DNA of 64,000 nt, from NCBI RefSeq assembly GCF_988243305.1, contig NZ_OZ547136.1, one strand, 5' to 3'. Position 1 is the first letter of the stretch, and each line of letters opens with the position of its first letter. Below are positions 1 to 52,197 of this stretch, in pieces. The notes beneath the pieces were generated by a model. It had not been told where the DNA came from. It saw only the letters and a list, made by a program, of their open reading frames with translations, and did no database searches. Both the position numbers and the translations under genes were made by a program.

Positions 1-188
1 ATTACGGTAAGGACCTGTGGAGTACTTATCAGACCATCCAGGAGAATATGCTGAAAGGCGGGATTTCCGGTCGCAGTGCAAAAGGAAAACGTATCCACAC
101 CCGTGCCATTCACAGCATCGACACCGATATTAAGCTCAACCGCGCATTGTGGGTAATGGCAGAAACGCTGCTGGAGAGCCTGCGCTGA
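1..188 (+). CDS. C-terminal fragment of an island protein (possibly DUF932 family); 5' end lies outside the window
   Basis: Open frame from window edge to TGA at 186-188; stop overlaps the ATG of the next ORF; position upstream of antirestriction gene as in CP4-type islands. Family assignment is from memory, not verified. Confidence 0.45.
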   Translation, partial: YGKDLWSTYQTIQENMLKGGISGRSAKGKRIHTRAIHSIDTDIKLNRALWVMAETLLESLR

Positions 189-433
189 TGCAGCATGTCC
201 CTGAAGGCGTGATTCAGGCACCAGAATCACCCGACGCCCCGGAGGCGCTGCCGGGGTGTCGTTCCATTTCTGATGATGACCTGTGCGCCTGGTGTACCCG
301 TCTGCTTTACCGTCCCGGAGAAATCAGTCTGTGCAGACTGAGTACAGGCAATGGCATCTGGCCATCCGTCTGTGACCGGAACGGTTACGCGTACGGCTGT
401 CCGGAATTTCAGCCGAATATCATTCATCCCTGA
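188..433 (+). CDS. Small cysteine-rich hypothetical protein (81 aa), possibly DUF905/YkfF-like
   Basis: ATG at 188 overlaps upstream stop (TGATG), suggesting translational coupling; 7 Cys in 81 aa; sits between DUF932-like and antirestriction genes. Confidence 0.45.
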   Translation: MQHVPEGVIQAPESPDAPEALPGCRSISDDDLCAWCTRLLYRPGEISLCRLSTGNGIWPSVCDRNGYAYGCPEFQPNIIHP

Positions 434-526
434 TATTACCGGGTCTCACGGTCAGTGATGAACGTGATGTTGCCAGCTCCCGACCTTTACTCCCTCTCAT
501 TTATTCACATTACAAGGATTTCATAC

Positions 527-1000
527 ATGAAAACATTGTCTCAGAACACCACCTCTTCGGCCTGTGCACCGGAGACTGGCCTGCAACAACTGGTTGCCAC
601 CATAGTCCCTGATGAACAGCGCATCAGCTTCTGGCCGCAGCATTTTGGCCTCATTCCACAGTGGGTGACCCTGGAGCCCCGTGTCTTCGGCTGGATGGAC
701 CGTCTGTGCGAAAACTACTGCGGTGGTATCTGGAATCTGTACACCCTGAACAACGGCGGGGCATTTATGGCCCCTGAACCGGATGACTATGATGACGAAA
801 CATGGGTACTGTTCAATGCCATGAACGGTAACCGCGCTGAAATGAGCCCGGAAGCCGCCGGCATTGCCGCCTGTCTGATGACGTACAGTCATCACGCCTG
901 CCGTACGGAGTGTTATGCCATGACGGTTCATTATTACCGTCTGCGGGATTACGCCCTGCAGCATCCGGAATGCAGCGCCATTATGCGCATTATTGACTGA
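527..1000 (+). CDS. Antirestriction protein, KlcA/ArdB family (YfjX/YafX-like)
   Basis: Translation MKTLSQNTTSSACAPETGLQQLVATIVPDEQRISFWPQHFG... matches my recollection of the K-12 prophage antirestriction paralogs; AAGGA RBS 9 nt upstream of ATG 527. Confidence 0.85.
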   Translation: MKTLSQNTTSSACAPETGLQQLVATIVPDEQRISFWPQHFGLIPQWVTLEPRVFGWMDRLCENYCGGIWNLYTLNNGGAFMAPEPDDYDDETWVLFNAMNGNRAEMSPEAAGIAACLMTYSHHACRTECYAMTVHYYRLRDYALQHPECSAIMRIID

Positions 1001-1015
1001 AAGGGGGCAGGAACA

Positions 1016-1492
1016 ATGCAACAGCTTTCCTTTCTGCCCGGAGAGATGACGCCCGGCGAGCGCAGTCTCATTCTGCGGGCCCTGAAAACCCTGGACCGCC
1101 ATCTTCATGAACCCGGCGTGGCCTTCACCTCCACCCGTGCGGCACGGGAATGGCTGATTCTGAACATGGCGGGACTGGAGCGTGAAGAGTTCCGGGTGCT
1201 GTATCTGAATAACCAGAATCAGCTGATTGCCGGTGAAACCCTCTTCACCGGCACCATCAACCGCACGGAAGTCCATCCCCGGGAAGTGATTAAACGCGCC
1301 CTGTATCACAATGCCGCAGCCGTGGTGCTGGCACACAATCACCCGTCCGGTGAAGTCACCCCCAGTAAGGCAGACCGCCTTATCACGGAACGTCTGGTAC
1401 AGGCACTGGGCCTGGTGGATATCCGGGTGCCGGACCATCTGATAGTCGGTGGCAGCCAGGTTTTCTCCTTTGCCGAACATGGTCTGCTTTAA
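1016..1492 (+). CDS. RadC-like JAB/MPN domain protein (YeeS/YkfG/YfjY family)
   Basis: 158-aa ORF with intact JAMM-type motif HNHPSGEVTPSKAD; conserved position after antirestriction gene. Confidence 0.9.
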   Translation: MQQLSFLPGEMTPGERSLILRALKTLDRHLHEPGVAFTSTRAAREWLILNMAGLEREEFRVLYLNNQNQLIAGETLFTGTINRTEVHPREVIKRALYHNAAAVVLAHNHPSGEVTPSKADRLITERLVQALGLVDIRVPDHLIVGGSQVFSFAEHGLL

Positions 1493-1554
1493 CCCGCCAC
1501 AACCACATCACACCTGTTTTCACTTTTATCTTCTGTCTTCAGAGGTATCCCATT

Positions 1555-1776
1555 ATGAAAATCATCACCCGTGGTGAAGCCATGCGTATTCACCAACAGC
1601 ATCCTGCATCCCGTCTTTTTCCGTTCTGTACCGGCAAATACCGCTGGCACGGCAGCACTGAAACGTATACCGGTCGTGAAGTGCAGGATATTCCCGGTGT
1701 GCTGGCCGTGTTTGCTGAACGCCGTAAGGACAGTTTTGGCCCGTATGTCCGGCTGATGAGCGTCACTCTGAACTGA
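1555..1776 (+). CDS. DUF987 protein (YeeT/YkfH/YpjJ-like)
   Basis: 73-aa translation MKIITRGEAMRIHQQHP...YVRLMSVTLN is near-identical to K-12 YeeT as I recall it. Confidence 0.85.
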   Translation: MKIITRGEAMRIHQQHPASRLFPFCTGKYRWHGSTETYTGREVQDIPGVLAVFAERRKDSFGPYVRLMSVTLN

Positions 1777-1794
1777 GTCAGTAAGGGCATTCTG

Positions 1795-2439
1795 ATGAGC
1801 AGAATTATCACCACCACCGTGTATACACTGCATGAGCTATCCTCCACCGCACAGGAAAAAGCCCGCGACTGGTACCGTCAGCATCATGCTGACAGCAACT
1901 GGTATGAAAACGTGTATGAGGACTTCAGGGAGGTCTGTGGCATTTTCGGAATTGACCTCCGCCAGCGCGTTTTCCGGCTCAGCAACGGCAGGTTTATGGA
2001 AGAGCCGTGCATCTGGTTCAGCGGATTCTGCAGTCAGGGGGACGGAGCCTGTTTTGAAGGGCGCTGGCACTGGCAGCCAGCGACACCCCGGAAAATCAGG
2101 GAATATGCCCCTCAGGACCGTGAGCTTCATCGTATCGCGGATGCCCTGCAGGCGGTACAGAAGCGTAACTTCTGGCAGTTACAGGCTGAAATCAGTCACC
2201 GGGGACGTTACTGCCATCCGTACAGCATGGATATCACCGTCACCCGGAACAGTCCGACTGGTCAGGCACTGACAGCCGATGCGGAAGCCGCTGTCAGCGA
2301 AGCCCTGCGCGACCTGGCCTTCTGGCTGTACCGCCAGCTGGAAAACGAGTACGACTGGCTGACCTCAGACGCCGCTGTAGATGAGGCCATTCACATCAAT
2401 GCATATACCTTCACCGAAGCCGGTCTCCACGCCGGCTGA
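1795..2439 (+). CDS. Hypothetical protein (214 aa), unknown function, inserted between DUF987 gene and cbeA
   Basis: Uninterrupted 645-nt ORF; ATG preceded by AAGGG; Trp/Cys-rich; no family recognised. The K-12 yeeT-cbeA type modules have no gene here. Confidence 0.55.
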   Translation: MSRIITTTVYTLHELSSTAQEKARDWYRQHHADSNWYENVYEDFREVCGIFGIDLRQRVFRLSNGRFMEEPCIWFSGFCSQGDGACFEGRWHWQPATPRKIREYAPQDRELHRIADALQAVQKRNFWQLQAEISHRGRYCHPYSMDITVTRNSPTGQALTADAEAAVSEALRDLAFWLYRQLENEYDWLTSDAAVDEAIHINAYTFTEAGLHAG

Positions 2440-2488
2440 CCTGTCATCGTTAAACTATCATTCACCAATTTTTTGTGAGGATTTGATC

Positions 2489-2866
2489 GTGTCAGACACA
2501 CTCCCCGGGACAACACTTCCCGACGACAATCACGACCGCCCCTGGTGGGGGCTGCCCTGCACCGTGACGCCCTGTTTCGGGGCACGTCTGGTGCAGGAGG
2601 GTAACCGGTTGCATTACCTTGCAGACCGCACCGGTATCAGAGGCCGGTTCAGCAATGCGGATGCATACCATCTGGACCAGGCTTTTCCACTGCTGATGAA
2701 ACAACTGGAACTCATGCTCACCAGCGGTGAACTGAATCCCCGCCATCAGCATACCGTCACGCTGTATGCGAAAGGGCTGACCTGCGAAGCTGATACCCTT
2801 GGCAGTTGTGGTTACGTTTATCTGGCTGTTTATCCGACACCGGCAGCACCCGCAATCACCGTATAA
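2489..2866 (+). CDS. cbeA: Type IV TA antitoxin CbeA (YeeU) homolog
   Basis: GTG start with GTGAGGA RBS; translation VSDTLPGTTLPDDNHDRPWWGLPCTVTPCFGARLVQEGNRLHYLADR... matches K-12 CbeA. Confidence 0.9.
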   Translation: MSDTLPGTTLPDDNHDRPWWGLPCTVTPCFGARLVQEGNRLHYLADRTGIRGRFSNADAYHLDQAFPLLMKQLELMLTSGELNPRHQHTVTLYAKGLTCEADTLGSCGYVYLAVYPTPAAPAITV

Positions 2867-2912
2867 CCCCGGATATCTCCCCTTTATCACCACCTGTTAC
2901 AGAGAACTTAAG

Positions 2913-3287
2913 ATGAATACATTACCCGACACTCACGTACGGGAGGCATCGGGCTGCCCGTCTCCCGTCACCATCTGGCAGACACTGCTCACCCGACTGC
3001 TGGACCAGCACTACGGCCTCACGCTGAATGACACACCGTTCGCTGATGAACGTGTGATTGAGCAGCATATTGAGGCAGGTATTTCACTGTGTGATGCGGT
3101 GAACTTTCTCGTGGAAAAATACGCGCTGGTGCGTACCGACCAGCCGGGATTCAGCGCCTGTACCCGCTCTCAGTTAATAAACAGCATCGATATCCTCCGG
3201 GCTCGCAGGGCGACCGGCCTGATGACCCGCGACAATTACAGAACGGTAAATAACATAACCCTGGGTAAGCATCCGGAGGCGAAATGA
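2913..3287 (+). CDS. cbtA: Type IV TA toxin CbtA (YeeV) homolog, cytoskeleton-targeting
   Basis: 124-aa translation; C-terminal ~100 aa (LLDQHYGLTLNDTPFADERVIEQHIEAGISLCDAVNFLVEKYALVR...) matches K-12 CbtA; N-terminus divergent. Confidence 0.9.
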   Translation: MNTLPDTHVREASGCPSPVTIWQTLLTRLLDQHYGLTLNDTPFADERVIEQHIEAGISLCDAVNFLVEKYALVRTDQPGFSACTRSQLINSIDILRARRATGLMTRDNYRTVNNITLGKHPEAK

Positions 3288-3775
3288 TGAAACTGGCCCT
3301 GACGCTGGAAGCCGACAGCGTTAACGTACAGGCACTGAACATGGGGCGCATTGTCGTTGACGTCGATGGTATTGAGCTTGCTGAACTGATTAACGTGGTC
3401 TGCGATAACGGTCACTCCCTTCGTGTTGTTGATGAATCTGACCGAGCCTCAACAGACTGCACGCCACCATTTGCTGCCCTGACCGGCATACGCTGCAGTA
3501 CCGCGCATATCACGGCAAAAGACAACGCCTGGCTGTACTCGCTGTCGCATCAGACGAATGACACCGGCGAATCAGAATGGATTCATTTTACAGGCAGCGG
3601 ATATCTGTTACGTACCGATGCGTGGTCATACCCGGTTCTGCGGCTTAAACGCCTGGGCCTGTCAAAAACGTTCCGCCGCCTGGTTGTCACACTCATCCGA
3701 CGTTATGGCGTCAGTCTCATTCATCTGGATGCCAGCGCTGAATGCCTGCCGGGTTTACCCACTTTCGACTGGTAA
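3284..3775 (+). CDS. DUF5983 protein (YeeW-like), overlaps cbtA stop
   Basis: ATG at 3284 overlaps cbtA stop (ATGATGA); 163-aa ORF in the conserved position after cbtA. Confidence 0.75.
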   Translation: MMKLALTLEADSVNVQALNMGRIVVDVDGIELAELINVVCDNGHSLRVVDESDRASTDCTPPFAALTGIRCSTAHITAKDNAWLYSLSHQTNDTGESEWIHFTGSGYLLRTDAWSYPVLRLKRLGLSKTFRRLVVTLIRRYGVSLIHLDASAECLPGLPTFDW

Positions 3776-3777
3776 CC

Positions 3778-3984
3778 ATGAACAACATGAAATCATTAAC
3801 CACGGAAACCGCACTGGATATTCTGATTGCGTGGCTGCAGGACAATATCGACTGCGAATCGGGAATTATCTTTGACAACGATGAGGATAAAACAGATTCG
3901 GCAGCACTGTTGCCCTGTATCGAACAGGCCAGGGAGGGTATCCGTACCCTGTGCCAACTGCAGCTTCTGCACCAGAACCGATGA
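3778..3984 (+). CDS. Small acidic hypothetical protein (68 aa), possibly DUF957-like
   Basis: ATG 2 nt after the previous stop; acidic DNDEDK stretch; family assignment from memory only. Confidence 0.5.
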   Translation: MNNMKSLTTETALDILIAWLQDNIDCESGIIFDNDEDKTDSAALLPCIEQAREGIRTLCQLQLLHQNR

Positions 3985-4073
3985 GTCTTACTCATTCACT
4001 CACCAGACTTCATTCCAATGACGTCAGCCTGAACAGGGCTGGCGTTTTCGTTTATAAACCAAAAGGAAAAACG

Positions 4074-4919
4074 ATGATGTCAGATATCACAATCTCCCGC
4101 CTGGAAGTGGTCAACGGACATACGGACATTATCTGCTCCACCTCAGTCAGCCACATTCTGGCTGTGCGAAAGACTACACTGCTGCAAATCGACACACTTA
4201 TCCGGCAACTGACTGAAATATCAGCAATGACAGAAAGTATTGGCGGTAAAACCGCACTGGACTGGGCCATGAAACAGGATTTTCGCTGCGGCTGCTGGCT
4301 CATGGATAAACCTGATACAGCAATGAAAGCTATCACCCGCAATCTCGATCGCGAAATCTGGCGTGACCTGATGCAATGCTCCGGGATGCTTTCCTTAATG
4401 GATGCACAGGCCCGTGATACATGGTACCGATCACTGGAGTACGATAATTTTCCGGAAATCAGTGAAGAGAATATTCTGAGTACGTTTGAGCAGCTACACC
4501 AGAATAAGGATGAAGTGTTTGAGCGAGGAGTGATCAACCTCTTCAGAGGGTTGAGCTGGAATTACAAAACCAATTGCCCCTGTAAATTTGGCAATAAAAT
4601 TATCGTCAACAATCTGGTGAGGTGGGACCGGTGGGGATTGCATCTTATCACCGGGCAACAGGCAGATAGACTTGCCGACCTGGAAAGAATGCTGCATCTG
4701 TTCAGCGGCAAACCGATCCCCGACAACAGGGAAAACATAACTATTCATCTGGACGAACATATCCGGTCTCTTCAGGGAAAAGAATGCTATGAAGATGAGA
4801 TGTTCATTATTAAATACTTTAAGAAGGGCTCTGCGCACATCACGTTCAGGAAGCCAGAACTGGTTGACAGACTGAATGATATTATCGCAAAACACTATCC
4901 TGATATGCTGGCAGTATAG
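4074..4919 (+). CDS. Hypothetical protein (281 aa), island cargo next to serX; possibly DUF4942-like
   Basis: AAGGAAAA RBS before ATG 4074; long ORF with lower GC than core; no catalytic motif recognised. Confidence 0.6.
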   Translation: MMSDITISRLEVVNGHTDIICSTSVSHILAVRKTTLLQIDTLIRQLTEISAMTESIGGKTALDWAMKQDFRCGCWLMDKPDTAMKAITRNLDREIWRDLMQCSGMLSLMDAQARDTWYRSLEYDNFPEISEENILSTFEQLHQNKDEVFERGVINLFRGLSWNYKTNCPCKFGNKIIVNNLVRWDRWGLHLITGQQADRLADLERMLHLFSGKPIPDNRENITIHLDEHIRSLQGKECYEDEMFIIKYFKKGSAHITFRKPELVDRLNDIIAKHYPDMLAV

Positions 4920-5026
4920 CTTTGCCAGTATGCTCAAAGATCGGAAATTGTCCGATAAGATATGATCGTGGGGCATATAAACCGGTTTCAGATGGCATAC
5001 CCGGTGGCATACTGTCTGGAAGGATA

Positions 5027-5060
5027 AATAAAAAAGCGCATGTTAAACAATAACATGCGC
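5027..5060 (-). terminator. Rho-independent terminator of serX
   Basis: Perfect 10-bp inverted repeat GCGCATGTTA/TAACATGCGC with 5-nt loop, followed on the minus strand by a T-tract, just downstream of the tRNA 3' end. Confidence 0.7.
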
Positions 5061-5068
5061 TTGTAATC

Positions 5069-5156
5069 TGGCGGTGAGGGGGGGATTCGAACCCCCGATA
5101 CGTTGCCGTATACACACTTTCCAGGCGTGCTCCTTCAGCCACTCGGACACCTCACC
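5069..5156 (-). tRNA. serX: tRNA-Ser (GGA), serX
   Basis: Reverse complement reads GGTGAGGTGTCCGAGTGGCTGAAGGAGCACGCCTGGAAAGTGTGTATACGGCAACGTATCGGGGGTTCGAATCCCCCCCTCACCGCCA: 88 nt, long variable arm, CCA end. Confidence 0.95.
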
Positions 5157-10701: not shown

Positions 10702-11455
10702 GATGAAACCCCGCTTTTTTTATTGATCGCACACCTGACAGCTGCCTCTAAAATAGAAGCACCAGAAGTACTGACAGATGTTGCACTGCTGTGTGTAGTA
10801 ATAAATCAGCCCTAAATGGGTAAAATATAAAACTAATGGATTACATGTGATTTCAATCTAGCCATTACAAATCTTAAATCAAGTGTTAAACATGTAACTA
10901 AATGTAACTCGTTATATTAAAATGTTAATCTTAAGGTTTTGTTAAGTTTAGAAATGATAGAAAAGTTGTACATTTGGTTTTTATTGCACAATTTTAAAAA
11001 ATCATACAAATGGTGCTAACTTACTAATAATGCATATAAAAAATATTTCGGTGTAGTCCTTTCGTCATGTAAAACGTTGTTGTTTTTTCTTCACACCTCC
11101 GTGGACAATTTTTTACTGCAAAAAGACGAGGTTTGTCACGGCTTGTGCGCAAGACATATCGCAGCAATCAGCGACGGGCAAGAAGAATGGCTGTCTGGTG
11201 ATTTTTGATTGCGGAAAACGGAGATTTAAAAGAAAACAAAATATTTTTTTGCGTAGATAACAGCGTATTTACGTGGGTTTTAATACTTTGGTATGAACAA
11301 AAAAAGAAAAATACAACGCGCGGGTGAGTTATTAAAAATATTTCCGCAGACATACTTTCCATCGTAACGCAGCGTTAACAAAATACAGGTTGCGTTAACA
11401 ACCAAGTTGAAATGATTTAATTTCTTAAATGTACGACCAGGTCCAGGGTGACAAC
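10702..11455. promoter_or_regulatory. csgD-csgB divergent intergenic control region
   Basis: ~750-bp AT-rich non-coding stretch between divergent csgD and csgB starts; known multi-factor regulatory region. Confidence 0.8.
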
Positions 11456-11951: not shown

Positions 11952-12407
11952 ATGAAACTTTTAAAAGTAGCAGCAATTGCAGCAATCGTATTCTCCGGTA
12001 GCGCTCTGGCAGGTGTTGTTCCTCAGTACGGCGGCGGCGGTAACCACGGTGGTGGCGGTAATAATAGCGGCCCAAATTCAGAGCTGAACATTTACCAGTA
12101 CGGTGGCGGTAACTCTGCTCTTGCTCTGCAAGCTGACGCCCGTAACTCTGATCTGACCATTACCCAGCACGGCGGCGGTAACGGCGCAGATGTTGGCCAA
12201 GGTTCTGATGACAGCTCAATCGATCTGACTCAGCGTGGCTTCGGTAACAGCGCTACTCTTGATCAGTGGAATGGTAAAGATTCTACTATGACTGTTAAAC
12301 AGTTCGGTGGCGGTAACGGTGCTGCTGTTGACCAGACTGCATCTAACTCCAGCGTTAACGTCACTCAGGTTGGCTTTGGTAACAACGCGACCGCTCATCA
12401 GTACTAA
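11952..12407 (+). CDS. csgA: Major curlin subunit CsgA
   Basis: 151 aa; five S-x5-Q-x-G-x-G-N-x-A repeats. Confidence 0.95.
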   Translation: MKLLKVAAIAAIVFSGSALAGVVPQYGGGGNHGGGGNNSGPNSELNIYQYGGGNSALALQADARNSDLTITQHGGGNGADVGQGSDDSSIDLTQRGFGNSATLDQWNGKDSTMTVKQFGGGNGAAVDQTASNSSVNVTQVGFGNNATAHQY

Positions 12408-13324: not shown

Positions 13325-13858
13325 ATGAAAACGCGTATTCATGTTGTGCAGGGTGATATTACCAAACTGGCCGTTGATGTGATTGTGAATGCGGCTAATC
13401 CGTCATTAATGGGAGGCGGCGGCGTCGATGGGGCCATTCATCGCGCAGCGGGTCCGGCGCTGCTGGATGCCTGTTTAAAAGTCAGGCAACAGCAGGGCGA
13501 TTGCCCTACGGGGCATGCCGTTATTACGCTTGCAGGCGATCTTCCCGCGAAAGCCGTAGTGCACACCGTCGGGCCAGTCTGGCGTGGTGGTGAACAAAAC
13601 GAAGACCAGCTTTTGCAGGATGCCTATCTCAATAGCCTACGACTGGTGGCGGCAAACAGCTATACGTCAGTGGCTTTTCCTGCAATTAGTACTGGGGTTT
13701 ATGGTTACCCTCGTGCGGCAGCGGCTGAAATCGCAGTAAAAACCGTTTCAGAATTTATTACCCGTCACGCTTTACCCGAACAGGTATACTTTGTCTGTTA
13801 TGATGAAGAAAACACCCACCTCTACGAAAGACTCCTTACCCAACAAGGAGATGAATGA
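13325..13858 (+). CDS. ymdB: O-acetyl-ADP-ribose deacetylase (macro domain) YmdB
   Basis: 177 aa; macro-domain motifs NAAN...GGGGV. Confidence 0.93.
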
Positions 13859-15281
13859 TTTGCCCCGGCTGGCGAGCGCGGTGCTGCCACTGTGTTCGCA
13901 ACATCCCGGTCAGTGTGGCCTTTTCCCTCTGGAGAAAAGTCTGGATGCGTTTGCCGCCCGGTATCGTCTGGCCGAAATGGCAGAGCATACGCTGGATGTT
14001 CAGTATTACATCTGGCAGGACGATATGTCGGGTCGGTTACTGTTTTCCGCCCTGTTAGCCGCAGCAAAGCGTGGCGTTCGCGTCCGTTTGTTGCTGGACG
14101 ACAACAATACACCCGGACTTGACGACATTTTACGCTTGCTTGACAGTCATCCCCGCATTGAAGTCCGGCTTTTTAATCCTTTCTCGTTTCGCTTGCTACG
14201 TCCGCTTGGTTATATCACCGACTTTTCCCGTCTCAATCGCCGTATGCACAATAAAAGTTTCACTGTTGATGGCGTGGTGACGCTGGTAGGGGGGCGAAAT
14301 ATTGGTGATGCCTATTTTGGTGCAGGGGAAGAGCCACTTTTTTCGGATTTAGATGTCATGGCAATAGGACCAGTTGTAGAGGACGTTGCCGATGATTTCG
14401 CCCGCTACTGGTATTGCAAATCGGTTTCACCCCTACAGCAGGTGCTGGATGTCCCGGAAGGTGAAATGGCGGATCGCATCGAGTTACCCGCCTCCTGGCA
14501 CAACGATGCCATGACGCATCGTTATTTACGCAAAATGGAATCCAGCCCGTTTATAAATCATCTGGTTGATGGAACGTTGCCGCTTATCTGGGCGAAAACA
14601 CGTTTATTAAGTGATGATCCGGCGAAAGGGGAAGGCAAGGCAAAACGGCATTCACTGTTACCGCAGCGCCTGTTCGATATCATGGGCTCACCCAGTGAAC
14701 GCATCGATATTATCTCTTCCTATTTTGTACCGACACGCGCAGGTGTGGCGCAACTCTTACGGATGGTGAGAAAAGGGGTAAAGATTGCGATCCTAACCAA
14801 TTCTCTTGCCGCTAACGATGTTGCTGTCGTCCATGCCGGATACGCGCGCTGGCGCAAAAAATTGCTCCGCTACGGCGTGGAATTATATGAACTCAAGCCG
14901 ACGCGTGAACAAAGTAGTACGTTACACGATCGCGGCATAACCGGTAATTCCGGTGCCAGCCTGCATGCTAAAACCTTTAGCATCGATGGTAAAACGGTGT
15001 TTATCGGCTCTTTCAATTTCGATCCGCGTTCGACATTGCTCAATACTGAAATGGGGTTCGTGATAGAGAGCGAAACGCTGGCACAGTTAATTGATAAACG
15101 CTTTATTCAGAGCCAGTATGATGCGGCCTGGCAGCTCCGTCTGGACAGGTGGGGACGGATCAACTGGGTTGATCGTCATGCAAAGAAAGAAATTGTTCTC
15201 AAAAAAGAACCCGCCACCAGTTTCTGGAAGCGGGTTATGGTCAGACTGGCATCGATATTGCCCGTGGAATGGTTATTGTAA
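13851..15281 (+). CDS. clsC: Cardiolipin synthase C (phospholipase D family)
   Basis: Start overlaps ymdB stop by 8 nt; two HxK(x)4D-type motifs ([16 protein letters not shown]). Confidence 0.9.
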
Positions 15282-16728: not shown

Positions 16729-20911
<4,183 letters not shown>

Positions 20912-20919
20912 AAACGTAG

Positions 20920-21015
20920 TTGCCTGATGCGCTACGCTTATCAGGCCTACATCGCTCCTGCAATGTGTTGATTTTGCAAGATTTTGTAGGTCGGATAAGG
21001 CGTTCACGCCACATC
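20920..21015. repeat. REP/BIME palindromic elements
   Basis: GCCTGATGCGCTACGCTTATCAGGCCTAC and GTAGGTCGGATAAGGCGTTCACGCC REP-like units downstream of opgH. Confidence 0.8.
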
Positions 21016-30115: not shown

Positions 30116-30220
30116 TAATCTCTATGCTCCGGCTGAAGGGATGTTTTTGCCGGACACAAAGGATAAGCGGAAACGTTTTCCTTTGCACGAAAAATAAAGG
30201 GCGCGAATGCGCCCTCGTGA

Positions 30221-30914: not shown

Positions 30915-31562
30915 TTAAATCGCCATTGATGATAACAAATTGATTTGTGTCTGTTTCGCCATATTATCGCGGTAATCAGCAACGCGGCTTGGCCAGTTGA
31001 TTCCGGCTACTAGCGTCAGATTACGCAGGAGCGGAAATAGCTGAATATCATCTTCCGAAAGTTCGCCATTCACGGCGTTCGGTTTGACGATCAGTTTGTC
31101 CAGCGCACGTAAATCATCGCTGATATTCTTAATCAGACCGTCAGAGTGGGCCAGCAGGTCGGCAAAATTACCCGCGCTGGCCTCTTTCTTTTCGACGAAA
31201 TATTTGCGCGCGGCAGGAGTAGAAAACTCATCAAATGCCGATTTGGCAAAACGCGGCAACAGCAGTTTGTTGGCGTAGCCATTGACCTTGCGCAACCACT
31301 CTTCAATGGCAGGGGAACGTTTGCCGGTCAGTAACGGTTTGCCGTCGAGTTTATCGACATAGTGAACGATGTCCATGCTTTCTGGCATATAGCGGCTGTC
31401 ATCTTTTTGCAGAATGGGAACCTGTTTTTGACCGACCATCCGGGTGGGTGTTTCTGCGTCGTCGTTGAGCAGAACATGTAATTCGACGGGGATATTTTTC
31501 AGGCCGAAAATCATGCGGGCTTTGAGGCAGTAAGGGCAGTGATCGTAAATGTATAGCTTCAC
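30915..31562 (-). CDS. grxB: Glutaredoxin 2
   Basis: 215 aa; active site CPYC near N-terminus. Confidence 0.95.
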   Translation of the reverse strand: MKLYIYDHCPYCLKARMIFGLKNIPVELHVLLNDDAETPTRMVGQKQVPILQKDDSRYMPESMDIVHYVDKLDGKPLLTGKRSPAIEEWLRKVNGYANKLLLPRFAKSAFDEFSTPAARKYFVEKKEASAGNFADLLAHSDGLIKNISDDLRALDKLIVKPNAVNGELSEDDIQLFPLLRNLTLVAGINWPSRVADYRDNMAKQTQINLLSSMAI

Positions 31563-33069: not shown

Positions 33070-34312
<1,243 letters not shown>

Positions 34313-34313
34313 A

Positions 34314-35237
34314 GTGAAAAAATTACGTATCGGCGTAGTGGGGTTAGGCGGCATCGCGCAAAAGGCGTGGTTACCGGTGCTGGCGGCAGCGTCTGACTGG
34401 ACGTTACAAGGTGCGTGGTCGCCTACGCGCGCGAAAGCCTTGCCAATTTGTGACAGCTGGCGCATTCCTTATGCCGATTCGTTATCCAGCCTTGCCGCCA
34501 GTTGCGATGCGGTTTTTGTGCATTCCAGCACCGCCAGCCACTTTGACGTGGTCAGTACGTTACTCAATGCGGGGGTACATGTCTGTGTCGATAAACCGCT
34601 GGCAGAAAATCTGCGCGATGCTGAACGGCTGGTGGAACTTGCGGCACGGAAAAAACTGACGTTGATGGTCGGTTTTAACCGTCGTTTCGCACCACTCTAC
34701 GGTGAGTTAAAAACGCAACTCGCCACCGCAGCCTCGCTAAGAATGGATAAACATCGTAGCAATAGCGTCGGGCCACACGATCTTTATTTCACGTTGCTGG
34801 ATGATTATCTGCATGTGGTGGATACCGCGCTGTGGTTGTCGGGCGGTAAAGCCTCTCTGGATGGCGGTACGCTACTGACTAATGACGCTGGCGAAATGCT
34901 GTTTGCCGAGCACCATTTTTCGGCCGGTCCTTTGCAGATCACCACCTGTATGCATCGCCGTGCCGGAAGCCAGCGTGAAACCGTGCAGGCCGTGACTGAC
35001 GGTGCGCTCATCGACATTACGGATATGCGCGAATGGCGTGAGGAGCGCGGGCAGGGCGTAGTGCATAAACCGATTCCTGGTTGGCAGAGTACGCTTGAGC
35101 AACGTGGATTTGTCGGCTGTGCGCGGCACTTCATTGAATGTGTGCAAAATCAGACAGTTCCGCAAACCGCCGGCGAACAGGCAGTGCTGGCGCAACGTAT
35201 CGTTGACAAGATCTGGCGCGATGCGATGAGTGAATAA
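34314..35237 (+). CDS. mviM: Gfo/Idh/MocA-family oxidoreductase MviM (YceM)
   Basis: GTG start 2 nt after yceH stop; Rossmann motif GVVGLGGIA. Confidence 0.88.
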   Translation: MKKLRIGVVGLGGIAQKAWLPVLAAASDWTLQGAWSPTRAKALPICDSWRIPYADSLSSLAASCDAVFVHSSTASHFDVVSTLLNAGVHVCVDKPLAENLRDAERLVELAARKKLTLMVGFNRRFAPLYGELKTQLATAASLRMDKHRSNSVGPHDLYFTLLDDYLHVVDTALWLSGGKASLDGGTLLTNDAGEMLFAEHHFSAGPLQITTCMHRRAGSQRETVQAVTDGALIDITDMREWREERGQGVVHKPIPGWQSTLEQRGFVGCARHFIECVQNQTVPQTAGEQAVLAQRIVDKIWRDAMSE

Positions 35238-43732: not shown

Positions 43733-43743
43733 GTGAGGCTGTG

Positions 43744-44841
43744 GTGATTAAATTTCTCTCTGCATTAATTCTTTTACTGGTTACCACGGCGGCTCAGGCT
43801 GAGCGTATTCGCGATCTCACCAGTGTTCAGGGGGTAAGGCAAAACTCACTGATTGGCTATGGCCTGGTGGTGGGGCTGGATGGAACTGGTGACCAGACAA
43901 CCCAGACGCCGTTTACCACACAAACGCTTAATAACATGCTCTCACAGCTGGGAATTACCGTTCCGACGGGCACCAATATGCAGCTAAAAAACGTCGCTGC
44001 GGTAATGGTGACGGCGTCACTTCCGCCGTTTGGACGCCAGGGGCAAACCATCGATGTGGTGGTATCTTCCATGGGTAATGCCAAAAGCTTGCGTGGCGGT
44101 ACGTTGTTGATGACACCGCTTAAGGGCGTTGACAGTCAGGTGTATGCGCTGGCGCAGGGCAATATTCTGGTTGGCGGCGCAGGAGCCTCCGCTGGCGGTA
44201 GCAGTGTTCAGGTGAACCAACTGAACGGTGGACGGATCACCAATGGTGCGGTTATTGAACGTGAATTGCCCAGCCAGTTTGGCGTCGGGAATACCCTTAA
44301 TTTGCAACTTAACGACGAAGATTTCAGCATGGCGCAGCAAATCGCTGACACCATCAACCGCGTGCGTGGATATGGCAGCGCCACCGCGTTAGATGCGCGG
44401 ACTATTCAGGTGCGCGTACCAAGTGGCAACAGTTCCCAGGTCCGTTTCCTTGCCGATATCCAGAATATGCAGGTTAATGTTACCCCGCAGGACGCTAAAG
44501 TAGTGATTAACTCGCGCACCGGTTCGGTGGTGATGAATCGCGAAGTGACCCTCGACAGCTGCGCGGTAGCGCAGGGAAATCTTTCAGTAACAGTTAATCG
44601 CCAGGCCAATGTCAGCCAGCCAGATACACCGTTTGGTGGTGGGCAGACTGTGGTTACTCCACAAACGCAGATCGATTTACGCCAGAGCGGCGGTTCGCTG
44701 CAAAGCGTACGTTCCAGCGCCAGCCTCAATAACGTGGTGCGTGCGCTCAATGCGCTGGGCGCTACGCCGATGGATCTGATGTCCATACTGCAATCAATGC
44801 AAAGTGCGGGATGTCTGCGGGCAAAACTGGAAATCATCTGA
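43744..44841 (+). CDS. flgI: Flagellar P-ring protein FlgI
   Basis: 365 aa; GTG start. Confidence 0.93.
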
Positions 44842-45782
44842 TGATCAGCGACAGCAAACTACTGGCAAGTGCGGCCTGGGATGCACAATCGCTCAACGAA
44901 CTTAAGGCGAAAGCGGGCGAAGATCCGGCGGCAAATATCCGTCCGGTGGCCCGCCAGGTGGAAGGGATGTTCGTGCAGATGATGTTGAAAAGCATGCGCG
45001 ACGCTTTACCAAAAGATGGCCTGTTCAGCAGCGAGCACACTCGCCTGTATACCAGTATGTATGACCAGCAGATTGCTCAACAGATGACGGCGGGCAAAGG
45101 TCTGGGGCTGGCAGAGATGATGGTTAAACAGATGACGCCAGAACAACCATTGCCAGAGGAGTCCACGCCAGCAGCACCGATGAAATTCCCGCTCGAAACC
45201 GTGGTGCGTTATCAAAATCAGACGCTTTCGCAGCTGGTGCAAAAGGCCGTACCACGTAACTACGATGATTCGCTGCCGGGTGACAGTAAAGCATTCCTCG
45301 CGCAACTCTCGCTGCCAGCCCAACTGGCAAGCCAGCAAAGTGGTGTGCCACATCATTTGATCCTCGCTCAGGCGGCGCTGGAATCTGGCTGGGGACAACG
45401 GCAAATCCGCCGTGAAAACGGCGAGCCGAGCTATAACCTGTTTGGCGTCAAAGCCTCTGGCAACTGGAAAGGGCCAGTCACTGAAATCACCACGACTGAA
45501 TATGAAAATGGCGAAGCGAAGAAAGTAAAAGCGAAGTTTCGGGTCTACAGCTCGTATCTGGAAGCATTGTCGGATTACGTTGGGCTGTTAACGCGTAACC
45601 CGCGCTACGCCGCCGTGACGACCGCCGCGAGTGCGGAGCAGGGGGCGCAGGCCCTACAGGACGCGGGCTATGCCACCGATCCTCACTATGCCCGCAAACT
45701 CACCAACATGATTCAGCAGATGAAATCGATAAGCGACAAGGTGAGCAAAACCTACAGCATGAACATTGATAATCTGTTCTGA
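44841..45782 (+). CDS. flgJ: Flagellar rod assembly protein / peptidoglycan hydrolase FlgJ
   Basis: 313 aa; ATG overlaps flgI stop by 1 nt. Confidence 0.93.
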   Translation: MISDSKLLASAAWDAQSLNELKAKAGEDPAANIRPVARQVEGMFVQMMLKSMRDALPKDGLFSSEHTRLYTSMYDQQIAQQMTAGKGLGLAEMMVKQMTPEQPLPEESTPAAPMKFPLETVVRYQNQTLSQLVQKAVPRNYDDSLPGDSKAFLAQLSLPAQLASQQSGVPHHLILAQAALESGWGQRQIRRENGEPSYNLFGVKASGNWKGPVTEITTTEYENGEAKKVKAKFRVYSSYLEALSDYVGLLTRNPRYAAVTTAASAEQGAQALQDAGYATDPHYARKLTNMIQQMKSISDKVSKTYSMNIDNLF

Positions 45783-51836: not shown

Positions 51837-52197
51837 CGTAACTTACTCATTATTCTTACATTGACGACTAAGCTGCGGGCAAAGTAACGCCTTTCCGGGT
51901 GTGAACCGATGGCCTCGTGTCTAGTCGCGTCGCCAACCTCACGGTTATCGTCAGCTCAAAGAGGCGCAGAGTGTCGGTTGCCCGTTTTTCATGCGGAAAA
52001 ACAGCGCAATTATCAAAGAAACAGACTGGGTATTACTCTCCAGAAATATTTCCATCTACCGGTAAGGACTGCAACCCGCAGCCCGCTAACTGCCTGAAAG
52101 ATCAATACGTCTTACGCCATTGCTGCGTGGATGATCGGTCGGGCAAAATGGGTTATTCCGTAAAATTTCTTGTTTTAACAAGGATGGACACGGAAAC
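51837..52197 (-). promoter_or_regulatory. rne 5' untranslated leader (autoregulatory in K-12)
   Basis: Long non-coding region upstream of rne start, divergent from rluC; extent taken from K-12 knowledge and is approximate. Confidence 0.6.

Follow-up and report, generated by a model that had tools for sequence, protein, structure and literature searches.

Short stop-start overlaps between genes on one strand have been shown experimentally in Escherichia coli to couple translation by termination-reinitiation, and this coupling declines sharply within approximately 20 to 40 nt (Huber et al., 2019, 2023; PMC6728339, PMC10666635). Genome-wide, 707 of 2,987 same-strand E. coli pairs (24%) are spaced between -8 and +6 nt, the commonest distances being -4, -1, and -8 (PMC10666635). 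Start codons other than ATG are likewise part of the normal repertoire, ATG, GTG, and TTG accounting for 81.8, 13.8, and 4.35% of starts (approximately 18% non-ATG) in 34 well-annotated bacterial genomes (bioRxiv 063800). Here we analyzed a stretch of 64,000 nt (contig NZ_OZ547136.1 of assembly GCF_988243305.1), hereafter called the window, for which an earlier reading of the sequence (the original prediction) had described frequent stop-start overlaps and non-ATG starts, consistent with translational coupling in operons. These overlaps and starts are real, ordinary, and already documented features of E. coli operons. At the ymdB/clsC boundary, comparison across Enterobacteriaceae argues for a start of clsC well inside ymdB.

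Gene content and start codons of the window

The window is E. coli chromosome, with segments 99.3 to 99.9% identical to complete E. coli genomes, and its gene order is that of K-12 from ghrA (b1033) through holB (b1099). We mapped K-12 and PGAP gene models onto it by BLAST, and all 75 full-length transferred models had intact ORFs. The K-12-like part contains ghrA, the csg genes, ymdB-clsC, opgGH, the flg genes, rne, plsX with the fab genes, and mltG-tmk-holB. It is preceded by an island adjoining serX, tRNA-Ser(GGA), which carries DUF932, an antirestriction gene, yeeS/yeeT-like genes, cbeA/cbtA, DUF5983, DUF957, and DUF4942. The DUF932 gene is truncated by the window edge.

Every sequence string listed in the original prediction was found at its position, and the features are compiled in Table 1. 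Six of the seven overlaps that it described (1, 4, 8, 1, 11, and 4 nt, the ymdB/clsC boundary being the exception) agree with the K-12 RefSeq models, the models of two PGAP-annotated genomes, or both, as do the five non-ATG starts that it gave (GTG for cbeA, mviM (yceM), flgI, and fabF; TTG for plsX). The complete set of non-ATG starts comprises GTG for cbeA, grxB, yceM, flgI, yceQ, and fabF and TTG for plsX and, according to the K-12 model, clsC, all in frame with their ORF. Of these, grxB and yceQ had been overlooked. For flgI, which opens with two consecutive GTG codons, both K-12 and PGAP choose the second one at 43744 (365 aa). In the plsX ORF, no start codon precedes the TTG at 55090, and this is the sole canonical start that includes residues 4 to 11, which align with residues 3 to 10 of Bacillus subtilis PlsX and with TIGR00182 from position 3 on; we place the plsX start there because homology to these N-terminal residues requires the TTG.

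Neither class of feature is enriched. Overlaps were observed in 6 of the 62 same-strand adjacent pairs of the window (-1, -4, -8, -1, -11, and -4 nt) and six more pairs were spaced +1 to +4 nt. A spacing of -8 to +6 nt was counted for 12 of 62 pairs (19%). Start codons were distributed as 68 ATG, 6 GTG, and 2 TTG, or 8 non-ATG starts out of 76 (10.5%). Tight spacing and non-ATG starts in the window are at or slightly below background, and the word "frequent" does not apply to either (19 vs. 24% of pairs and 10.5 vs. approximately 18% of starts). As originally stated, the finding carries little weight, being one of textbook operon features at background frequency.

Table 1. Overlaps, non-ATG starts, and ymdB/clsC junction elements in the window (positions in nt of the window).
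Feature	Position	Strand	Sequence or model	Upstream motif	Source or support
DUF932 stop / ATG of 81-aa hypothetical ORF	186-190	+	TGATG, 1-nt overlap	weak	PGAP models, strain 190693
cbeA start	2489-2491	+	GTG, 125 aa	GAGGA ahead of start	PGAP models
cbtA stop / DUF5983 start	3284-3287	+	ATGA, 4-nt overlap	GGAGG, spacing 5 nt	
Distal clsC start pair (13800/13803) inside ymdB	13800-13805	+	ATGATG, from YmdB codons TAT GAT GAA		
clsC start, 493 aa	13800	+	ATG, 59-nt overlap with ymdB		PGAP; at least 1000 contigs
YmdB Leu-Thr codons, in RLLTQ	13835-13840	+	CTT ACC		Leu is CTT/CTC in 18 of 18 overlapping taxa
Shine-Dalgarno-like motif inside ymdB	13845-13850	+	AAGGAG		
ymdB stop (TGA, 13856-13858) / in-frame clsC ATG	13851-13858	+	ATGAATGA, 8 nt, 476-aa model		
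clsC start, 476 aa	13851	+	ATG, 8-nt overlap with ymdB		original prediction; 72 contigs
clsC start, 473 aa	13860-13862	+	TTG, 1-nt gap after ymdB stop		K-12 RefSeq, curated
opgG stop / opgH start	18368-18375	+	ATGAATAA, 8-nt overlap	none nearby	INRI-seq supports opgH start
grxB start	31560-31562	-	GTG		transferred model; absent from original prediction
yceH stop / yceM (mviM) start	34310-34316	+	TAA-A-GTG, 1-nt gap, GTG at 34314		INRI-seq
flgI start	43741-43746	+	GTGGTG (43741, 43744)	GAGG, 5 nt ahead of second GTG	INRI-seq peak
flgI stop / flgJ start	44839-44843	+	TGATG, 1-nt overlap	weak	INRI-seq peak, 4 of 5 replicates
yceQ start	51971-51973	+	GTG		K-12 model; absent from original prediction
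plsX start	55090-55092	+	TTG		homology with B. subtilis PlsX
fabF start	59408-59410	+	GTG	GGAGG, 6 nt ahead	INRI-seq and Ribo-RET
mltG stop / tmk start	62593-62603	+	ATGCGCAGTAA, 11-nt overlap	TAAGGA, spacing 6 nt	INRI-seq and Ribo-RET support tmk start
tmk stop / holB start	63231-63234	+	ATGA, 4-nt overlap	AAGGAG, spacing 8 nt	no start-site peak

Published start sites and translational coupling

Start-site profiling, which the original prediction had proposed as a check, has already been published for most of these genes. We relied on INRI-seq Table S2, which reports five cell-free replicates together with the in vivo Ribo-RET peaks of Meydan et al. (2019); the INRI-seq template consists of isolated mRNA fragments, so that translation of the upstream gene is absent (PMC9825163). 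According to this table, the ATG of tmk and the GTG of fabF have peaks in both data sets (Ribo-RET value of 276 for fabF), and an INRI-seq peak with no Ribo-RET peak is recorded for the ATG of opgH, the ATG of flgJ (4 of 5 replicates), and the GTG of yceM and of flgI (PMC9825163). The same table has an INRI-seq peak for grxB, none for yceQ, and neither type of peak for clsC (TTG), holB (ATG), plsX (TTG), and mltG (ATG), an absent INRI-seq peak being weak evidence since a large share of the annotated starts examined in it are peakless (PMC9825163). The cbeA gene is not present in K-12 at this locus. The opgH start is also found in TRAINSPOTTER Table S1, and clsC, yceM, flgI, flgJ, plsX, and fabF are not among the entries listed of that table (PMC13245402). 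Neither ymdB nor clsC is mentioned in the main text on Ribo-RET. Profiling thus bears out the starts of opgH, flgJ, tmk, yceM, flgI, and fabF, and provides no peak for those of clsC, holB, and plsX.

Twelve same-strand pairs in the window have a downstream start that falls within approximately -11 to +6 nt of the upstream stop. From spacing that is too short for a terminator and a promoter, and from the known operons opgGH, flgB-J, and the fab cluster, we infer that the overlapping pairs are co-transcribed. The E. coli pairs for which coupling was tested experimentally all lie outside this window (PMC6728339, PMC10666635), and it is by extension from them that, at the six ordinary overlaps, a ribosome ending the upstream gene may re-initiate at the adjacent start. 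Alternatively, judging again from other pairs, translation of the upstream gene may unmask a Shine-Dalgarno motif buried in its coding sequence and allow fresh initiation. Coupling is not obligatory for opgH, flgJ, and tmk, because all three initiate on isolated fragments in INRI-seq. The absence of a peak at clsC and holB fits a dependence on upstream translation, as weak evidence. Coupling as originally proposed stands insofar as the layout is that of E. coli pairs for which it has been shown; what falls away is the claim of frequency and, probably, the 8-nt ymdB/clsC boundary.

Start models at the ymdB/clsC junction

Three incompatible clsC start models circulate in public databases (Table 1). 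The Shine-Dalgarno-like motif at 13845-13850 directly adjoins ATG 13851 (0 nt) and precedes TTG 13860 by 9 nt; in a predicted 6-bp hairpin, its partner is CUCCUU at 13832-13837. The clsC construct used for INRI-seq included ATG 13851 and TTG 13860 and excluded ATG 13800; according to the table, TTG 13860 received zero reads and ATG 13851 was not called as a peak (PMC9825163). N-terminal evidence for the 493-aa model was not found in the literature, and no ClsC-specific NCBIfam model scored above cut-off.

We compared the junction in 27 Enterobacteriaceae taxa. No proximal clsC start is conserved among them. ATG 13851, which arises incidentally where YmdB encodes Asp-Glu as GAT GAA, is conserved in E. 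coli, Escherichia fergusonii, and Escherichia albertii, is ACG in Citrobacter sedlakii, and is absent elsewhere. At the site of TTG 13860, four Citrobacter species have ATG and E. albertii has TTA; in the latter, AAGGCG also replaces the AAGGAG motif and clsC is still intact. One of these four Citrobacter species, Citrobacter werkmanii, has clsC-frame stops further upstream, and its two genes overlap cleanly at ATGA. Cedecea and Buttiauxella have a GTG or TTG one base past a shorter ymdB, and Dryocola has a GTG. From the distal ATG(s) to the conserved ClsC motif TRLxRA, there is no ATG, GTG, or TTG in Salmonella, Lelliottia, Leclercia, Superficieibacter, Enterobacter ENT03, and Cronobacter, and the only such codon in Atlantibacter and in an isolate labelled "C. 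freundii" M-21 is a mid-overlap TTG (approximately 32-nt overlap). ClsC orthologues in the genera compared are mostly annotated with 493 to 495 aa. Erwiniaceae, in which ymdB is missing upstream, have a ClsC that begins 13 to 16 codons before TRLxRA with good Shine-Dalgarno motifs. The arrangement AAGGAG-ATG-N6-TTG at the ymdB stop was found in E. coli and E. fergusonii.

Codon choice in the clsC frame inside ymdB

Synonymous codons were resampled with the YmdB protein held fixed in 21 taxa. Over the upstream 130 ymdB codons, 95 clsC-frame stops were observed for 103 expected (summed over the 21 taxa). The last approximately 22 codons contained 3 stops vs. 17.4 expected, all three in C. werkmanii, and the 20 taxa remaining when this species is set aside had 0 vs. 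14 expected. Codon choice holds the clsC frame inside ymdB open beyond neutral expectation, with a signature that rests essentially on one site, the Leu before Thr at 13835-13837, from which the resampling signal originates. At this position, CTT and CTC leave the clsC frame open, and CTG, CTA, TTA, and TTG create TGA or TAA at 13836-13838. As a control on the same phylogeny, we examined the 45 alignment columns (7 in ymdB and 38 in clsC) in which every one of the 18 overlapping taxa has Leu. Restriction to CTT/CTC was observed in a single one of them, at 13835-13837 (12 CTT and 6 CTC), the other 44 using three to six codons. Yokenella, a single taxon that serves as a natural control, has ymdB and clsC 129 nt apart, and here the site reads TTA ACT, the stop-creating choice.

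Other candidate signals proved uninformative or were rejected. Given the YmdB sequence, an in-frame distal ATG would be likely to occur by chance (P of 0.8 to 0.97), and it is uninformative as evidence for a long clsC. The length of the open frame was also dropped as evidence, stops in the clsC frame occurring about once per 25 to 30 ymdB codons so that 22 open codons are unremarkable; that test gave way to the resampling and Leu-column analyses above. A hairpin sequestering the Shine-Dalgarno motif was considered as the cause of the Leu restriction and discarded, its pairing partner being unconserved in genera that are still restricted.

Position of the clsC start

The restricted Leu codon lies upstream of both ATG 13851 and TTG 13860, and therefore translation in the clsC frame most likely starts further upstream, at 13800/13803. 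The frame would be read from this ATG pair inside ymdB with an out-of-frame overlap of 59 or 56 nt. Several observations stand against such a long clsC: ATG 13800 is preceded by no Shine-Dalgarno motif, the overlap peptide is poorly conserved, and the curated K-12 reference takes TTG 13860. This last position has a case of its own, in which ribosomes terminating on ymdB would re-initiate at the TTG, AAGGAG would hold the ribosome, and the open frame upstream would be a relic. Termination-reinitiation would be open to the proximal TTG and closed to a start located 59 nt inside ymdB. The TTG lacks independent initiation in vitro, which is the expected behavior of a coupled start. The motif is at a workable spacing, translation of ymdB would open the predicted CUCCUU/AAGGAG hairpin, and the stop-N-start layout recurs with ATG in the four Citrobacter species, GTG or TTG in Cedecea and Buttiauxella, and GTG in Dryocola. 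Moreover, C. werkmanii combines an ATG (as ATGA) at this very site with upstream in-frame stops, so proximal starts do evolve and work. However, the codon is TTA in E. albertii, where the motif is degraded too, about ten genera including Salmonella are without a canonical start at or beside the ymdB stop, the hairpin is unconserved in other genera, and a start located downstream leaves the CTT/CTC restriction at 13835-13837 unexplained. Taken together, we regard re-initiation at TTG 13860 as rather unlikely to be the main route to ClsC, although the proximal AAGGAG-ATG-N6-TTG of E. coli and E. fergusonii may serve as a secondary, coupled clsC start.

The codon restriction also bears on ATG 13851, the start given in the original prediction, from which a 476-aa protein would be made across the 8-nt overlap. 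This codon is in frame, it is shared by the three Escherichia species, the 476-aa form has been deposited, and 8 nt ranks third among E. coli overlap lengths. Yet AAGGAG abuts it with no spacing, the ATG is a by-product of YmdB codons that is absent outside Escherichia, no INRI-seq peak was called although the construct contains it, and it departs from both the K-12 and PGAP models while leaving the upstream restriction unaccounted for. On these comparative data, clsC probably has its main start elsewhere than at ATG 13851, the 8-nt overlap was probably mis-called, and a 476-aa ClsC appears improbable. A still different possibility is that ClsC is made as a YmdB-ClsC fusion by programmed +1 ribosomal frameshifting near the ymdB stop, in the manner of prfB. 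The prfB +1 frameshift site consists of a Shine-Dalgarno-like element, a slippery CUU, and an in-frame UGA, and obeys a re-pairing rule. At the junction studied here, clsC occupies the +1 frame relative to ymdB, AAGGAG lies 2 nt ahead of the final sense codon and UGA, a canonical junction start is missing in many genera, and fused ORFs of 651 to 653 aa occur in public data. These Macro+PLD ORFs were rejected as natural fusions, being frameshift alleles with 1-nt deletions far upstream inside ymdB (at approximately 13694 of the window and at position 639 of the Salmonella locus). Programmed frameshifting itself was rejected as well for want of a slippery codon and of conservation across genera, and we consider it extremely unlikely: GAA-UGA in E. 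coli, GCC-UGA in Salmonella, and GCA-UAA in Enterobacter bar +1 re-pairing, the Shine-Dalgarno-like motif is unconserved, and a shift at the stop would leave a constraint 20 nt upstream unexplained. It is likely, in our judgment, that the window is a normal stretch of E. coli with ordinary overlaps of the coupled type and that clsC probably starts at 13800/13803 inside ymdB.

YmdB and the ClsC boost

The product of ymdB is reportedly not required for the ClsC boost, going by the title of a 2024 study by Sawasato and Bogdanov. Where a 2021 review deals with this boost in clones carrying ymdB, its mechanism is given as unknown (PMC8027125), and reviews, in their treatment of the pair, present YmdB as a partner protein of ClsC (PMC8027125, PMC7156725, PMC4966929). 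If the start or N-terminus of clsC lies inside ymdB, the boost would have a simple explanation in cis, which we offer as a lead. We tentatively suggest, at somewhat less than even chances, that the first approximately 20 residues of ClsC are encoded in the 3' end of ymdB (+1 frame, ATG 13800/13803) and that the boost by ymdB is a cis effect. If so, "clsC alone" clones based on the K-12 TTG model would be missing both the native start and the N-terminus, part of ClsC would be removed in constructs and knock-outs that follow this model, and deletions or insertions in ymdB would take away the clsC start. It would also bear on the literature in which YmdB is treated as a protein partner of ClsC (PMC7156725, PMC8027125). 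The curated K-12 clsC model (TTG, 473 aa) is contradicted by the codon-choice signature in 18 Enterobacteriaceae taxa.

Comparison with known systems

Strain K-12 MG1655 (NC_000913.3, b1033-b1099) shares 93 to 100% DNA identity per gene with the window, and the starts and stops of opgG/H, flgI/J, mltG/tmk, tmk/holB, yceM, flgI, plsX, and fabF are identical. K-12 differs by the absence of the serX-adjacent cbtA/cbeA island that the window carries, and by a clsC model that begins at TTG with a 1-nt gap, vs. the ATG of the original prediction. The PGAP model of clsC (WP_001548398.1-type, 493 aa) begins at ATG 13800, the same start as our comparative analysis favors, and is the majority public form, with 493 to 495 aa in Salmonella, Citrobacter, Leclercia, Lelliottia, and Cronobacter, although it is a computational call in conflict with the curated K-12 model. 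The prfB site resembles the end of ymdB in having an AAGGAG just upstream of an in-frame UGA and a downstream gene in the +1 frame, but the ymdB/clsC junction has neither the slippery codon nor conservation across genera. Compared with the coupled pairs of Huber et al. (2019, 2023; PMC6728339, PMC10666635), the window differs in that opgH is without a nearby Shine-Dalgarno motif yet initiates in vitro, and in that three overlapping starts initiate without upstream translation. Otherwise, its pairs are likewise same-strand operon genes overlapping by 1, 4, 8, or 11 nt, the Shine-Dalgarno motifs of DUF5983, tmk, and holB are inside the upstream gene, and the overlap rate is the same as that of E. 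coli genome-wide.

Start of clsC in Related Genomes

The junction of ymdB and clsC was compared across other Enterobacteriaceae genomes. In Lelliottia, Leclercia, Superficieibacter, Enterobacter, Salmonella, Cronobacter, and Atlantibacter, the clsC-frame codon located one base past the ymdB stop is ACG or ACA, encoding the Thr of the conserved TRLxRA (TRL) motif of ClsC. No canonical clsC start was found at or adjoining the ymdB stop in the junctions compared (loci L012, L014, L017, L018, L024, L086, L088, and L089; junction approximately 60 nt upstream of this motif). Therefore, only the distal ATG inside ymdB fits as the start in these loci or, for L024 and L089, a TTG in the middle of the overlap. 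Yokenella regensburgei (locus L090, 229-2382) has 129 nt between the two genes and no overlap, and its ClsC has a separate start (MTITISESEPF...) 21 codons ahead of the TRL motif. This locus served as a natural control when we analyzed whether synonymous codon choice in ymdB keeps the clsC frame open within the overlap.

ORFs of 651 to 653 aa linking a Macro domain to ClsC also occur in public assemblies. They correspond to 1-nt deletions within ymdB (E. coli loci L093 and L094, Salmonella-like locus L092), after which the frameshifted YmdB continues into the clsC frame. The deletion is at position ~13694 of the window in the E. coli allele, which was present in at least 20 samples, and at locus position 639 in the Salmonella-like allele. 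The E. coli allele also carries an A to T change at 13738 that abolishes a clsC-frame stop (13737-13739).

Closely Spaced Pairs and Alternative Starts

Three same-strand gene pairs in the window have a stop-to-start gap of only 1-2 nt, namely yceH/yceM, pabC/mltG, and, with the K-12 gene model, ymdB/clsC. These pairs are compatible with translational coupling, which they fit equally well as the overlapping pairs; they were missing from the list in the original prediction.

Cell-free E. coli start-site maps (INRI-seq, Table S3) report an in vitro initiation peak in five of five replicates at a GTG approximately 16 nt upstream of tmk (PMC9825163). In the window, this GTG (62577-62579) lies inside mltG, 16 nt ahead of the tmk ATG, in frame with the last nine codons of mltG and out of frame with tmk. 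For mltG itself, the same table has a GTG peak at +9 in two replicates, and the annotated ATG has no INRI-seq peak (PMC9825163). The annotated flgJ start is preceded, at a distance of 30 nt, by a further in-frame ATG (44811-44813); this ATG would yield a 323-aa FlgJ and an overlap of 31 nt, with the TIGR02541 profile starting at residue 22 of this form. Both the references and INRI-seq place the flgJ start at ATG 44841.

Genomic Context

Coordinates of features in the window (Rfam matches are those above the gathering score)
Feature	Position	Strand	Detail
CP4-like island	1-5156		
tRNA-Ser(GGA)	5069-5156	-	
ES056 sRNA	10757-10848	-	Rfam; upstream of csgD
csgA	11952-12407		
ymdB/clsC, K-12 model	13856-13862		TGA-T-TTG
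ES036 (CssrF) sRNA	20943-20985	-	Rfam
PyrC leader	30116-30165	-	Rfam
yceH/yceM	34310-34316		TAA-A-GTG
rne 5' UTR element	51861-52197	-	Rfam
SraB sRNA	54058-54226	+	Rfam
pabC/mltG	61576-61583		TAG-TC-ATG

The CP4-like island adjoining tRNA-Ser(GGA) carries DUF932, an antirestriction gene, a JAB/yeeS gene, DUF987/yeeT, the toxin-antitoxin pair cbeA-cbtA, DUF5983, DUF957, and DUF4942. The island shares 99.8-99.9% identity with NU14, UM146, and APEC O18, which are extraintestinal strains. The best matches for the rest of the window are other strains (99.3-99.5%). Hence, the window as a whole has no match in any single complete RefSeq genome. In this region, all five Rfam elements are expected. Compared with K-12, csgA is only 93.4% identical, while its neighbours reach 96-99.6%. 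Greater divergence is also seen in ymdA (95.5%) and in flgE (95.7%), which is one codon shorter.
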